DNA from: Eledone cirrhosa
Lineage: Eukaryota
Assembly (NCBI GenBank): GCA_964016885.1
Contig: OZ024741.1
Location: 117,242,001-117,306,000, forward strand
Reading direction: 5' to 3'
Length of the DNA stretch: 64,000 nt
Shown: in pieces, positions 581-61,078 of the stretch
How the letters are laid out: every line of letters starts with the position of its first letter
How positions within the stretch are numbered: the stretch's first letter is position 1
Program-made: the position numbers and the translations under genes
The notes under the pieces: generated by a model
What the model was told of the DNA's origin: nothing
Databases searched by the model: none
What the model saw: only the letters and a program-made list of their open reading frames with translations

Positions 581-850
581 AACACAAATTTAAATTTTGA
601 AGACCAACACAATGCGTTATGAAGATTGTTAAAATTGCCAAGATAACACTGCTCCCATACAAACAAGTCTACCCGATCAATTTTTATGGGGTCACTCCCT
701 TGATAATGGGTTTTTAAACCTGAAAATATTTGGGATCGTTAAATTTGCTAAGGTAGGATTCTTGGCAATTTTAACAATCTTCATAACGCATTGTGTTAGT
801 CTTCAAAATTTAAATTTATGTTTATTAAACACGCAAGCTACAAAACTCTG
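581..850 (+). mobile_element. Penelope-type pLTR remnant with inverted arm and internal hammerhead
   Basis: 581-643 is an inverted copy of 760-822 (2 mismatches); HHR motif in the spacer; flanked by (TA)n. Confidence 0.55.
696..735 (+). ncRNA. Minimal type I hammerhead ribozyme motif, U3-A8 core variant
   Basis: TCCC-TTGATAA-TGGGTTTTTAAACCT-GAAA-ATAT-TT-GGGA: helix I TCCC/GGGA, helix II GGTT/AACC, palindromic AAATATTT helix III. Confidence 0.6.
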
Positions 851-861
851 TTATATATATA

Positions 862-2123
862 CAGGGTGCGGGTGGTATTTAAGGACACATGCATTTTTAG
901 TCATTATTTTATTTGACTAATTTTTATTGAACTTCTATTTCAGAAAATAACAATGAAAATAACTATGCTTACTAATGAAATGAAAAGTCATGCTGTGATT
1001 GTGGTTTTGAAGGCTAAGCATGGGGATTTAAAAATTTCTCGTTTTTTGAAAGTCGCAAGATCTTTTGTCCACAAGATTCGGTGTGAATTAGAGAAAGAAG
1101 ATGGAAGCGTATTACCTGTATCAAAATGTTAAAAAAAACATTCCAAACACTCTGATTCTATCAGGACACCTGAATTTATTCAGGAAGTTAAGCAAAACAT
1201 TGATGGCAATCCAGGAAAATCAATGAAGTCAATTGCAAAAGATTTCGGTGTGTCAGAAAAAACAATCAGAAATGTTGTGCATGAAGACATCTGATACAAA
1301 TCTTACGTGGTGAGGAGAGGTCAATTCATGTCAGAAAAACAAAAGAAAACCATTTAATCAGATCCAAAAGATTTTTTTAACAAACTTAAAAGTCCATCAG
1401 AATATGGTGTGATTTGTTTTTTCTCAGATGAGAAAACTTTGACCAGGACCAGAAAACTAACAGAAGAAATGACAGGTGGCTATGTGCAGACCCTTCTGAG
1501 ATTCCAAGAGTAATGCACACACAATTTCCTGCAAGTGTCATGGTTTTTGGTGTTGTTAGGAATGAAGGACATGTAATGCCTCCTCACGTTTTTCCACAAG
1601 GCCTTGGGGTGAATGCTGTTGCGTATATTGAGGTTCTGGATAAAGTTGTTAAGCCTTAGATCAACAGTATATGCAATGGAAGGCCTTATTCAACAAGATT
1701 CTGCACCATCACATAAGGCGCAAATGACACAAGAATGGATGGCCATACAAATGCATGATCACATCACCCCCAACATTTGGTCTCCTAATTCTCCAGATCT
1801 CAATCCACTGGACTACTATGTATGGAGCGTCGTTGAGAAAAATGTCAATGAACACCTCCATAGCACCAAATATTCTTTGAAAGCCGCCATAATTCGAGTC
1901 ATGTCCGATAAGAAGGACCACTTAATCTGAGCTTGTAAACGATTTCGACCCTGTGTAGAGGCAGTTATTGGATGAAATTATGAAATTGATAATTTAGCTT
2001 TATGTTTATGTTATTTTTATAAGAATACAGGTTTTTTTCTGTTATTGTATAAGCGTTTTTTTTTTAACCATAAATCTGTCCTCAAATACTGTCTATATAC
2101 TGTCAAATACTGTCTATATACTG
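862..2123 (+). mobile_element. Tc1/mariner DD37D (maT-like) DNA transposon, decayed
   Basis: TA|CAGGGTG left end; disrupted transposase ~965-1975 with FFSDEK, QQDSAPSH and WSPNSPDLNPLDYYVW (37 residues between 2nd and 3rd D); degenerate right TIR sharing gtattt.aggaca.at. Confidence 0.9.
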
Positions 2124-2155
2124 TGTATATATATATATATATGTATATGGTTGAA

Positions 2156-58209: not shown

Positions 58210-60208
58210 TTAATGAAATAGATGTTCTTTTGATCAATTAAATTTTATTATACATATTTTAGAGGTACAACAGTACGTCCTCATCAGACAAAATATAAAG
58301 ATACATGACATACCCTGAGATGTTAAATGGTTAAGATTTAATCAAGGTGTAGTGATTAACCTATGAGAAAACTCTACATGTATACCCTAATAATGACAAA
58401 ATGCGAAAACGTGATAAATTCAGTAGAGAATGTATGAGTAAGCAAAACGTTGCATAATGTAACAGTTATAGAGATTTTAAAATGTGGGATACTACAAATT
58501 ATGGTTATCGAGGAAGAAATCACTGGAATTATAATTTTATTACAGTTTATGAAGGCAACTGATAGATGCTTAAAGAGAGGGAGAGATAAAGGGGAGTAAT
58601 TTATGCAGAAAAAAATGTTTTCCCCTTAAGGATTAAACGGTTAAGTTTCAAAATATTTCATTTATGTTATTTAAGGGTGAAGAATAAAAATTTGAGTTTT
58701 TAAAAGTTGATGATTATTTATATTTATTAATTTAATAAATTTAATAAATTTTTAAAAGTGTTACATTTCTAAAATTCCGAATTTAATGAAAACAAAGTTA
58801 AAGGATTTACTTGGCCCGCAAAAGGAAAATTTACACTGTTGAATATTCTCTTAAAATGTAATCTTTAACAAAAGTTACCTGTAAGAGTGTCAACATTTTC
58901 GGTATGTAAAGCTTATGAAGTACTTATTGTTAGAAATATCGAAAAATGTATTGTCAAGTAGATACATTGTTTAAAGTGTAATGATTAACGCATAGTTTTC
59001 AGCCATATATATACACATATATATGTGTGCAATTATCGTAATAAATTAATATTTATTATATTATATTAAATCACTATATTAGTTCTACCTTTATGGGAGG
59101 AAAGAACTCTAAATAATAAATGTGTTATTGTACAATATATCTATATTTGCACAAACTATTTATAGCGTTAAACCGAAACGGTAATTATGATAAAGTTATT
59201 GTACACTATAGATATAGATGCAAAAAACCAAAAGCTGAGATATACGTGACTAATAATATGATTATGTTATTATACAATATACACATAATTGCAAAAATAA
59301 ATTTGGTATAGAGAGATATACTAAGTATTAATGAGACAGCATACTTTTGGTGAATGATAACGATTATAATCTTATATAATAGATTCAAACATGCGAAAGT
59401 TAAATACATACATATATATAAAAGTGTGTAAACGCATGAATGATTCACAGTTCAAAATAAGGTCCGCAAAAATTTACAGGTTGGATTTTTTAACTATATT
59501 TAAAACATAAATAGATAAATAAAGGTAGGTATATTTAAAAACATGCAAAACTTGAATACATACATATATATAAATAAAGGAGTGTAAACGCATGAATGAT
59601 TCACAGTTTGAAATAAGTTCCATAAAAATTTACAGGCTGGATATTTGAACTATATTTAAAACATGGATAGAAAAATAAAGGTAGAGAAATAACGGTATGG
59701 ATCAAAGTTAATAATATTATTTTATGTATATCAACGTGTCAGCATGTTATTAAACAAGTCTCATTCAATCAAACGTTATTTCTTCTATACATAGTTATAA
59801 GATAAAGCAATATCACAGGCCATTAAGATTTTCAACTGTTGATTATGTAGGTCTAAAGACCAAGTTTAGTGTCCTAGTGTTTTTCCCTGGTCTTATGGGA
59901 GGCTTGAAATGTAGACAAAGCTTTATGAAGGCAATTAGAGAATAATTCACTTTTTTTGTTAATTAAGGTCTCATAATTATTAATAATCAACAGGGTCTCC
60001 AATGTACAAAGCGCGCAGTTACTTGATATACTTGAGTTGCGGTAAACTCCACTATTCCGAAGTTTTGTCCAAAAAATTGAGTACTTTAAATTCTCTTTTA
60101 ATGACCATCCATATAAGCTGTGAAACTACTGTAAACCTCATTCTACCGTAAAACTCAGTCTATTGTAAAACTCATTCGTTGATGTACTCATTGAATCTTG
60201 TTTAACTC
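58210..60208 (-). mobile_element. 5'-truncated Penelope-like element: GIY-YIG C-terminus, long 3' region, degenerate HHR
   Basis: Coding remnant (next feature); CTGATGAG-GACGTAC-TGTT-GTACCTC at ~58287-58262 with a mutated GAAA; ~155 bp internal duplication at ~59400-59685. Extent inferred. Confidence 0.55.
59874..60113 (-). pseudogene. Penelope GIY-YIG endonuclease C-terminal remnant
   Basis: Hand translation YGWSLKENLKYSIFWTKL...CALCTLETLLII...LINKKSELFSNCLHK...* matches the W.LK..Y.I.W / CxLCxxE / LxNKxSE..xxCxH signature of PLE endonucleases. Confidence 0.75.
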
Positions 60209-60349
60209 TTTTATATATATATATATATGTATATATATATATATATATATATATATATATATATATATAAATATATATATATATATATATATATATATAT
60301 ATATATATATATATATATATATATATATATATATATATATATATATATA

Positions 60350-61078
60350 TAAGTATGTATAGTATACGCACATGCATATATGTATACAGACGCACAGTAG
60401 TATGTATATATATACATACATGCACACATATATATATATATATATGTACGCATGGGTTTACCAAACATTTATTATAATGTTCGGTTTGTTTGTAAACAAA
60501 CATCCCGAATTACGCCGTACAGTGTTCAGGCAACGATCGTTGACTTTTGTTCAACACTGACACAGGAACGATTTACTAGCTTCAAGCTTATTAGCTATCG
60601 TCAGCATCGTATACCTTTCTGTCAGATGATTGAACGTCTGAAAGTATATACTTTCCTTATGCATATTAACGGCTGAGCAGCCTAATTTGCATATCGAGTG
60701 AGTTAGTCGACCGGGCGCACCGAAAACGTAAATGGAAAAGAATGAAAGGAAATTTCATTTCTCACTCTTAGTGCGGCTGATACCTAAATATAAGTATGTA
60801 TACGTACATACATATATGTATACAGACGTACAGTAGTATGTATATACATACATGCACACATATATATATGTACGTATGTGGTTTACAAACAAATCGAACA
60901 TTATAATAAATGTTCGGTAAACCGATACGTACATATATATGTGTGTGGGTGTATGTATGTATATAGATACTATTGTACGTCTGTATTCATATGTGTATGT
61001 ACGTATACATACTTATATTTAAGTAAAAGCCGTACTAAGAGTGAGAAATGAAATTTCCTTTCATTCTTTTCCATTTAT
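60350..61078 (-). mobile_element. Second retrozyme-like / pLTR element: ~440 bp monomer, partial tandem plus inverted segment
   Basis: 60350-60460 is repeated at ~60791-60886; ~60883-61078 is an inverted copy; HHR inside; (TA)n flanks. Confidence 0.7.
60568..60610 (-). ncRNA. Minimal hammerhead motif with two point changes
   Basis: Minus strand: ACGATG-CTGACGA-T-AGCT-AATA-AGCT-T-GAAG-CTAG-TA-AATCGT. Confidence 0.65.

Follow-up and report, generated by a model that had tools for sequence, protein, structure and literature searches.

All seven sites flagged as hammerhead ribozymes in the stretch of Eledone cirrhosa DNA analysed here (64,000 nucleotides, hereafter the window) are genuine type I hammerhead motifs lying at the ends of high-copy repeats, and in six families positions 10.1 and 11.1, which usually close helix II, are unpaired and fixed (three families U/U, one A/A, one C/A and one A/C). 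We propose, with a probability of roughly 0.8, that these are the 3'-end hammerheads of (TA)n-targeting, mostly Hydra-clade elements, in which the constraint on the 10.1/11.1 pair is relaxed and the catalytic core is kept, and that they probably still cut, if slowly. Largely, this is an ordinary situation: U-U, seen more often than any other form, has been described before and is frequent in Hydra-clade elements, and what is left is the set of fixed A/A, C/A, A/C and A/G forms.

A first descriptor retrieved five loci in the window and 0–1 across 12 shuffles, and 130 matches were obtained in a 1.2-Mb sample of this genome compared with 0, 1 and 1 in three shuffles; chance is thus excluded as the source of the motifs. 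The coordinates, letters and cleavage triplets (GUU, GUA or UUU) reported by the first-pass annotation proved correct at all seven sites, and an eighth motif that it had overlooked was found (Table 1). The CUGANGA box (or its U3-A8 form), the GAAA box and a NUH triplet are present in six of the eight window motifs, the two core-box exceptions being 4331, whose first box is 8 nt long, and the window copy at 60568, with G at 15.1. Helices I, II and III surround the core, helix I being open. Stem II measures 2 bp at 35084, 3 bp at 19795 and 4 bp at 60568, with marginal energies in the first two (-0.6 and 0.0 kcal/mol, respectively), whereas the motif at 36125 has a 6-bp G-C-led stem within a 51-nt domain II and domain II reaches 61 nt at 4331. 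Helix III is palindromic in most of the mismatched families, including 35084 and 36125, near-palindromic at 24794, and made of 4 bp with an 8-nt loop at 19795.

Table 1. Hammerhead motifs and associated features of the window, with the number of other copies that carry the family's letters at 10.1/11.1 (first and last letters of domain II), among copies picked by the motif and in loci chosen independently of it; the latter are present for the families at 19795, 60568, 35084 and 4331 and there are none for the other three sites.
Position	Strand	Feature	10.1/11.1 (positions)	Triplet	Copies picked by motif	Independent loci
696–735	+	type I hammerhead, Penelope-type, decayed copy (alignment of family copies)				
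4331–4421	+	type I hammerhead-like	A/C (4344/4404)	GUA	25/26	2/2
19795–19845	-	type I hammerhead	U/U (19832/19821)	GUA	35/35	18/19
24794–24840	+	type I hammerhead	A/A (24804/24826)	GUU	33/33	
35084–35123	-	type I hammerhead	U/U (35111/35101)	GUU	36/37	2/2
35125–35194	.	near-perfect hairpin formed by an inverted, 5'-truncated stub of the element at 35084				
about 35254–36259		head-to-head insertion of 36125-family units in (TA)n				
35423–35502	-	second 36125-family hammerhead copy	C/A (35491/35441)			
36127–36206	+	type I hammerhead (site 36125)	C/A (36138/36188)	GUU	52/52	
60568–60610	-	type I hammerhead	U/U (60597/60584)	GUA	36/36	20/20

Copies were counted in loci selected by means of the window copy. 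The six mismatched families keep the same letters in 25–52 copies each, and the mismatch is therefore a fixed state and not the decay of individual copies. The R10.1-Y11.1 pair, which type I hammerheads conserve without strictly requiring it and which these families lack, is present at 696, a site that had been taken for a fourth independent U/U case. Alignment of the family copies reveals an extra U between 9 and 10.1, followed by G10.1; the U11.1 of the window copy is a C-to-T change, since this position is C in 22 of the 33 other copies, T in 10 and A in one. The 696 family is canonical (extra U plus G10.1-C11.1), so that the U/U families number three. The earlier contention that the recurrent mismatch is not decay thus holds for six families, fixed as unpaired, and the G-C consensus that would have spoken against it is restricted to 696. 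This motif also has a U3-A8 core (at 700), unnoted before, and in two loci (L166 and L180) an ORF with reverse transcriptase (RT) and GIY-YIG domains, of a type different from the Hydra one and which we take to be Poseidon-like, lies about 360 nt upstream of it.

Among the mismatched families, four (35084, 24794, 4331 and 60568) stand behind Hydra-clade Penelope-like ORFs, as assigned by motif reading and by tblastn among this genome's own ORFs. In each of them the hammerhead is preceded by an RT and, C-terminal to it, a GIY-YIG-type endonuclease, and the CxCX5C linker is present; RWR and DKT motifs are found in the N-terminal RT region of the 24794-family ORF of locus L064, and the ORF of locus L019 gave no Pfam match. 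The CxCX5C linker and the RWK-like and DKT motifs are among the published marks of the clade (PMC8557442), and insertion into (TA)n with tandem or inverted 5'-truncated copies, another of its features, was likewise found. The 35084-family insertion is placed within (TA)n, and its motif lies about 190 nt behind the ORF in the longer copies, being colinear with it in 25 copies. At 24794 the motif is located within the pseudo-LTR of a Hydra-clade element, is colinear with the ORF in L326, L327 and L330, and is immediately followed by it in L064. The 4331 motif, colinear with the ORF in L331 and L334, terminates a Hydra-clade element whose 3' UTR is rich in microsatellites and 2.5 kb long. For 60568 the ORF is seen about 650 nt upstream in a single long copy. 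The 'HHR_core' motifs of Naiad elements were also considered and ruled out, given the C-terminal endonuclease of the linked ORFs.

The 19795 and 36125 families were not counted as Hydra-clade members, as no colinear ORF appeared among the loci examined. For 19795, whose element has a unique part of about 0.6 kb, the 13 upstream stretches inspected contained no colinear ORF, one weak sense match being detected in L343 and antisense matches in L345 and L351. The 36125 family consists of ORF-less units of about 530 bp, up to 3–4 in tandem, with one type I hammerhead each, an organization like that of non-LTR retrozymes. Nearby Neptune-like, L036-type or Hydra ORFs were rejected as partners of these units, each being either separated from them by (TA)n or part of another family.

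Two motifs depart from the core in other ways. The 8-nt first core box of 4331 (at 4336), missed in the first reading, is fixed across the family; its additional nucleotide resembles the A6a insertion, for which low activity was reported (PMC3088659). The window copy at 60568 has two private changes, likewise missed, at 15.1 (G, where the family has A) and within helix I; as a ribozyme this copy is probably dead. One other copy of the 60568 family reads C/A, both ends being altered and still unpaired.

The mismatch had been presented as a core variant specific to a lineage or to Penelope-like elements (PLE), with the implication that it was undescribed. The association with PLE, mainly of the Hydra clade, is confirmed, but the variant is already on record. 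Perreault et al. (2011, PMC3088659) named U10.1-U11.1 as a natural core variant and, citing Ruffner 1990, described U-U as the best-tolerated mispair; their variants share with ours the position, the mismatch and weak 2-bp stems II, and include an A6a insertion like that of 4331 and a U3-A8 core like that of 696. They called U/U rare, whereas it occurs in 27 of our 130 sampled motifs. Among the papers listed in our literature search, this was the only one that named U10.1/U11.1 together with the hammerhead. The axolotl HHR_Amex2 (Cervera and de la Pena 2020, PMC7229834), a family of about 60,000 copies, carries a U-U mismatch at the foot of helix II, which we liken to 10.1/11.1 on the numbering in the paper's text, and it cleaves (22% in 1 h as a monomer, much better as a dimer). 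Like the 36125 family, it is organized in tandem units that lack an ORF, but its repeats measure 350 bp and its motif is a canonical type I hammerhead in which loops 1 and 2 make contact.

Close counterparts are the Hydra-clade hammerheads of Craig et al. (2021, PMC8557442). Like the motifs studied here, they are type I folds at the 3' end of elements that target (TA)n, with a short palindromic helix III, GUA/GUU triplets (C17 in 4 of 25) and a CxCX5C linker in the ORF; an octopus family belongs to the clade. By our own count, the 25 Hydra-clade families of their File S2 comprise 14 U/U, 7 G-C, 2 G-U, 1 U/C and 1 with an extra G and A-U, U/U recurring in four phyla; U/U is thus to some extent a documented norm. 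The available text classes these hammerheads as canonical and U/U passes unremarked in it, and our search met no text linking U/U to the Hydra clade, although the link is visible in File S2. None of the Hydra rows of this file is A/A, C/A or A/C, and C/A appears in the row of the Chara PLE-X1. Compared with the published families, those of Eledone cirrhosa have domains II of up to 51–82 nt and 3' UTRs of 2.5 kb. Cervera and de la Pena (2014, PMC4209133) described minimal hammerheads that are likewise PLE-borne and dimer-type, with a U3-A8 variant, and whose consensus (extra base plus G10.1-C11.1) is matched by 696. Their Penelope descriptor already permits an extra N10 and N11; in their Fig. 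S3, going by the order of the text, the Hydra row is U/U, that of Drosophila willistoni apparently so, and one row apparently A/A. No kinetics for fixed A/A, C/A, A/C or A/G forms were found in the literature search.

The final descriptor covers neither the 4331-type register nor copies altered in the core, which makes the genome counts lower bounds. Mismatches at 10.1/11.1 were found in 45 of the 130 sampled hammerheads, the 27 U/U included; as 11 of the 130 matches come from one tandem array, counting once per family and locus gives 37 of 93. U/U accounts for 9 of the 14 mismatched families, far above any other mismatch. The density is about one hammerhead per 9 kb and one mismatched motif per 27 kb, and the previous figure of one per 8 kb applies within the window only. 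Non-GUC triplets, noted earlier alongside the mismatch, are general in this genome (GUC in 7 of 130 matches) and not bound to it. Although described as highly conserved in the minimal PLE set (PMC4209133), G10.1-C11.1 is present in only a minority of the motifs sampled from this animal (45 of 130).

The prediction that standard models overlook these motifs was borne out, as neither Rfam nor a strict R10.1-Y11.1 descriptor recovers them. The hammerhead models of Rfam gave 0 matches in the window at the gathering score, which misses the canonical site 696 as well; in the Rfam scan of the window at E<=1, only microsatellite-driven miRNA/snoRNA noise was seen among the matches listed (150 of 211), and at E<=10 there were none for 35084, 35498, 36125 or an intact 60568-family copy. 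A G-C family copy matched Hammerhead_HH9 (E 1.5e-8), below gathering. The published Penelope descriptor as printed, which is without loop III (PMC4209133), recovered no window motif. If the 45 mismatched motifs of the 1.2-Mb sample are roughly scaled up to 3.0 Gb, Rfam-based counts would miss some 100,000 motifs in this genome.

How could such motifs work? The roles of G8 and G12 are described, and the A9-G12 pair adjoins G10.1-C11.1 (PMC11300833). Stacked on stem II and next to the sheared A9-G12 pair, a U-U (or A-A, C-A, A-C) could form a non-Watson-Crick platform and, with the catalytic G8 and G12 unaltered, the RNA would still cut. The window motifs are likely to do so slowly, for the most part when tandem copies form a dimer or when the element's protein assists, a protein-assisted PLE hammerhead having been reported (PMC11167929). 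The letters of each family may derive from one master copy, subsequently amplified. A relaxed constraint with a preserved core would account for positions that are unpaired and fixed per family, and paired and unpaired states inside single clusters, as seen in clusters 3, 11 and 17, are expected from it. The linked ORFs also speak for this reading: those of Hydra type in this genome terminate in U/U, A-U, G-C, A/A and A/C motifs, whereas the four ORF-linked non-Hydra families, under clade labels that we assume, are all G-C. Some observations run against it: 19795 and 36125 have no linked ORF, the 60568 link comes from one copy and the non-Hydra comparison covers just four families; the stems II of 19795 and 35084 are marginal, and 4331 has an extra core-box base. 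The U/U excess fits only via U-U being the best-tolerated mispair.

An alternative, which we consider unlikely, is that two bases were inserted, one between 9 and 10.1 and one before G12, the next pair serving as 10.1-11.1. This agrees with the G-C at that place in 36125, with the 5' extra base that is a hallmark of PLE, and with the fact that A/A and C/A pair more poorly than U-U. The published descriptor, too, treats the two bases as 'extra N10' and 'extra N11' (PMC4209133). However, in the five remaining families that pair reads U-A, C-G, U-A, A-U or C-G instead of an R-Y G-C, and in the Hydra rows of File S2 the first and last letters change as a unit, being U/U in some families and G-C in others (PMC8557442).

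It is rather improbable that 10.1/11.1 is a selected tuning switch. On this reading the mismatch, reached separately by several lineages, would lower cleavage and thereby spare full-length template RNA, and young, very successful A/A, C/A, A/C, A/G and U/U families would keep it for the advantage of a slow hammerhead gated by dimer formation or by protein. In a tree of 12 Hydra-type endonuclease regions, all from this genome's ORFs, the U/U families fall in two deep lineages that are not joined, but 5 of its 9 deep branches are open. Cluster 8 groups related A/G and U/U forms, and the C/A copy of the 60568 family, changed at both ends, would also suit selection, as would U/U in the axolotl retrozyme (PMC7229834) and, apparently, in the D. 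willistoni element. Against it, A-U and G-C serve successful Hydra-type families in this genome as well, and U-A and A-U subfamilies exist alongside U/U and A/A ones. The axolotl U-U monomer cut better than its paired sister, but it has a stronger helix III (PMC7229834). Were the switch real, about one third of roughly 300,000 hammerheads in this genome would lie outside the textbook core geometry, invisible to Rfam; unless the mismatch proves selected, the known chemistry is unchanged. The fixed A/A, C/A, A/C and A/G families offer natural variants for asking how much closure of stem II a hammerhead needs.

We give very little weight to dead relics, that is, a master-copy mutation amplified because cleavage is unneeded for transposition. 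Hammerhead mutants had no effect on in vitro insertion of an anole PLE (PMC11167929), the damaged-looking core box of 4331 is fixed, and stems are weak; yet core boxes and helices I and III are preserved in dozens of unrelated families, U/U spans four phyla in File S2 (PMC8557442), and the axolotl U-U motif cleaves (PMC7229834). Random decay of single genomic copies, which does hold for 696, is practically negligible for the six families, whose letters recur in 25–52 copies each and, for four of them, also in independently chosen loci.

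Six of the hammerheads in the window, each named after its position (696, 4331, 19795, 24794, 35084 and 36125), were recovered with a hammerhead descriptor in which positions 10.1 and 11.1 were left free (these close helix II, usually as G10.1-C11.1; a slash marks an unpaired state), and a further motif (35423-35502) was found beyond the seven of the first-pass annotation. Descriptor matches numbered five in the real window vs 0-1 in shuffles, and 60568 was identified by hand reading because of a core change in the window copy. The stretch comes from contig C2 of a 3.0-Gb animal genome, where microsatellites are abundant and the repeat content suggests an octopus. 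All its motifs read as type I hammerheads, with a palindromic or near-palindromic helix III in six families, a mark of dimer-type hammerheads (PMC4209133), and a 4-bp helix III instead in 19795. The first core box of the large 4331 family has eight bases in 25/25 aligned copies, and a relative in the sampled loci (cluster 44) has the usual seven.

Each site served as the query of a genome search (493-2726 first-look candidates per site, 2726 for 36125; 40 scored each). Six families kept their U/U, A/A, C/A or A/C letters in other copies (see table), so that the mismatch is not random decay, as the first-pass annotation had argued. The same letters were present in copies met within other loci for 19795 (18/19), 35084 (2/2), 60568 (20/20) and 4331 (2/2), and 41 of 44 among the 35084 matches listed were identical across 81 bases. 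The U/U claimed for 696 did not hold: the stem register gives an extra U after A9, then G at 10.1. Among the 33 other copies, position 11.1 reads C in 22, T in 10 and A in 1; as this C belongs to a CpG, the change probably arose by decay. The 696 motif follows the usual Penelope pattern and has the U3-A8 core already known. The initial observation is thus confirmed in part, and its interpretation partly supported.

Features and their locations; the loci behind the 10.1/11.1 counts were ranked by how closely they resemble the window copy, a ranking that biases the counts toward agreement
Feature	Location	10.1/11.1 in other copies
19795 family	window 19795	U/U in 35/35
35084 family	window 35084	U/U in 36/37
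60568 family	window 60568	U/U in 36/36
24794 family	window 24794	A/A in 33/33
36125 family	window 36125	C/A in 52/52
4331 family	window 4331	A/C in 25/26
First core box, 4331 family	window 4336-4343	
ORF-less ~530-bp units	window 35254-36259	
233-bp SINE-like repeat	window 27742-28311	
CAC-rich and GTG/TG-rich tracts	window 12440-14513 and 16703-18261	
Hammerhead array (L255)	G000:C3:190000001-190010000	
Broken hammerhead-like stretch	L326 ~4350-4420, also L086	
(TA)/(TG)-rich 3' UTR tracts	L331 3500-6000, also L343	

An ORF with RT and C-terminal endonuclease lies upstream of the motif, in the same sense, in the 35084 (ORF end ~190 nt ahead, 25 colinear copies), 24794 (colinear across 2.8-3.3 kb in three loci), 4331 (joined in two loci across a 2.5-kb UTR rich in simple repeats) and 60568 (continuous in one copy) families. 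One 24794 locus (L064) has a pseudo-LTR layout, in which this ORF begins again after the motif. All four ORFs contain a CxCX5C linker and that of 24794 also RWR and DKT motifs; the linker, RWK-like and DKT motifs are reported for the Hydra clade of Penelope-like elements (PLE) (PMC8557442, section 11), and these ORF motifs indicate that the four families carry Hydra-clade features. A Pfam search of the L019 ORF returned no recognised domain. Comparison of upstream stretches linked no ORF to 19795. The ORF upstream of the 696 motif is of a different type, presumably Poseidon-like, its reference ORF weakly matching RVT_1 and GIY-YIG. The 36125 family is a ~530-bp tandem unit without ORF, which appears retrozyme-like; the young window units, each with one long-stem-II hammerhead, are arranged in tandem and inverted inside (TA)n and look like a PLE-mobilised retrozyme. 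A broken hammerhead-like stretch in the 24794-family 3' UTR, ~0.6 kb past the ORF and 1.7 kb ahead of the working motif, is perhaps a former end that has since been replaced. Other Hydra-type 3' UTRs have long (TA)/(TG)-rich tracts common to copies, so these elements seem to disperse microsatellite-like sequence.

A genome sample of 120 stretches of 10 kb, taken at fixed steps from contigs C1-C5, C7 and C28, yielded 130 hammerhead matches (0-1 in three shuffles): 63 paired without an extra base (31 A-U, 25 G-C, 4 U-A, 3 G-U), 21 with an extra base and a pair, 45 mismatched (27 U/U, 9 C/A, 7 A/G, 2 A/A) and one in another state. Mismatched families were 14 of 34, nine of these with U/U. The cleavage triplets are indeed other than GUC, as first noted, but this is not special to the variant, since GUC occurs in only 7/130 matches and non-GUC triplets are thus general in the sampled genome. 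Hydra-type ORF-linked families read U/U, A-U, G-C, A/A and A/C, and the four non-Hydra ORF-linked families G-C in every case; in a 12-row tree, U/U occurs in two pairs, each well supported, which do not group together, the deep branches being open. Hammerheads at other loci (L217, L260, L244, L336, clusters 30 and 31) have a 74-82-nt domain II closed by U/U, one with a U3-A8 core, and a Hydra-type ORF ahead of the motif where linked. In L255, 11 hammerheads with A-U at 10.1/11.1 recur every 310 bp and appear to form a retrozyme-like satellite.

The proposal of a PLE-specific core variant gains from the Hydra-type ORFs of four families, but U/U itself is already published. Natural U10.1-U11.1 is described as rare, and U-U as the best-tolerated mispair on the authority of Ruffner 1990 (PMC3088659); ~60,000 axolotl motifs have U-U at the helix II base, as in the 19795, 35084 and 60568 families, and cleave to 22% in 1 h as monomer and far more as dimer (PMC7229834). 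By our own count of File S2 of Craig et al. 2021, whose heading labels its motifs canonical, 14 of 25 Hydra-clade families are U/U (two sequence-identical), the others being G-C (7), G-U (2), U/C (1) and extra G with A-U (1); one Chara element is C/A (PMC8557442). G10.1-C11.1 is termed highly conserved in PMC4209133, where 2 of the 56 rows of Fig. S3 are U/U and a third apparently A/A. The literature text searched holds no statement of U/U as a Hydra-clade trait, on which figures and Lunse et al. 2017 may bear.

The expectation that standard descriptors miss the variant was borne out for Rfam and for a strict R10.1-Y11.1 descriptor, whose sole window match was 696. Rfam gave zero window matches at gathering score. 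When three of the mismatched window motifs and an intact U/U copy were searched separately, no hammerhead model matched them at E<=10; a G-C copy reached E 1.5e-8, with helix I and stem lengths uncontrolled relative to the mismatched copies. The Rfam miss of the mismatched window motifs is real. The Penelope descriptor permits extra N10 and N11 (PMC4209133); as printed it lacks a loop III and for that reason recovers zero window motifs. Allowing this loop brings back 19795, and relaxing the stem II limits as well raises the yield to five motifs, so its miss is not due to 10.1/11.1.

G12 acts as base in hammerhead cleavage, and a metal is contacted at N7 of G10.1. G12 and the G8 2'-OH perform the chemistry, and A9-G12 adjoins 10.1-11.1 (PMC11300833). 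As G8, G12 and A9 are intact in the mismatched families, the mismatch would likely weaken folding and, in U/U and C/A forms, lose the metal ligand. Cleavage would then likely be slow and reliant on tandem dimers or protein, a dependence shown for other PLE hammerheads (PMC4209133, PMC11167929). Since single clusters, and the clade too, switch between paired and unpaired states, we favour, with a probability of about 0.8, a relaxed constraint on 10.1/11.1 followed by founder fixation in each family. Alternatively, the two bases could be two insertions, a structural reading that fits relaxed constraint and selection alike. Selection of the mismatch itself is unlikely, given that same alternation in single clusters and across the clade.

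The window also holds other repeats. The 233-bp repeat, which we take to be a cephalopod SINE, is present in 2.5 tandem copies. The CAC-rich and GTG/TG-rich tracts, both very long, lie on opposite strands ~2 kb apart and roughly form an inverted pair.
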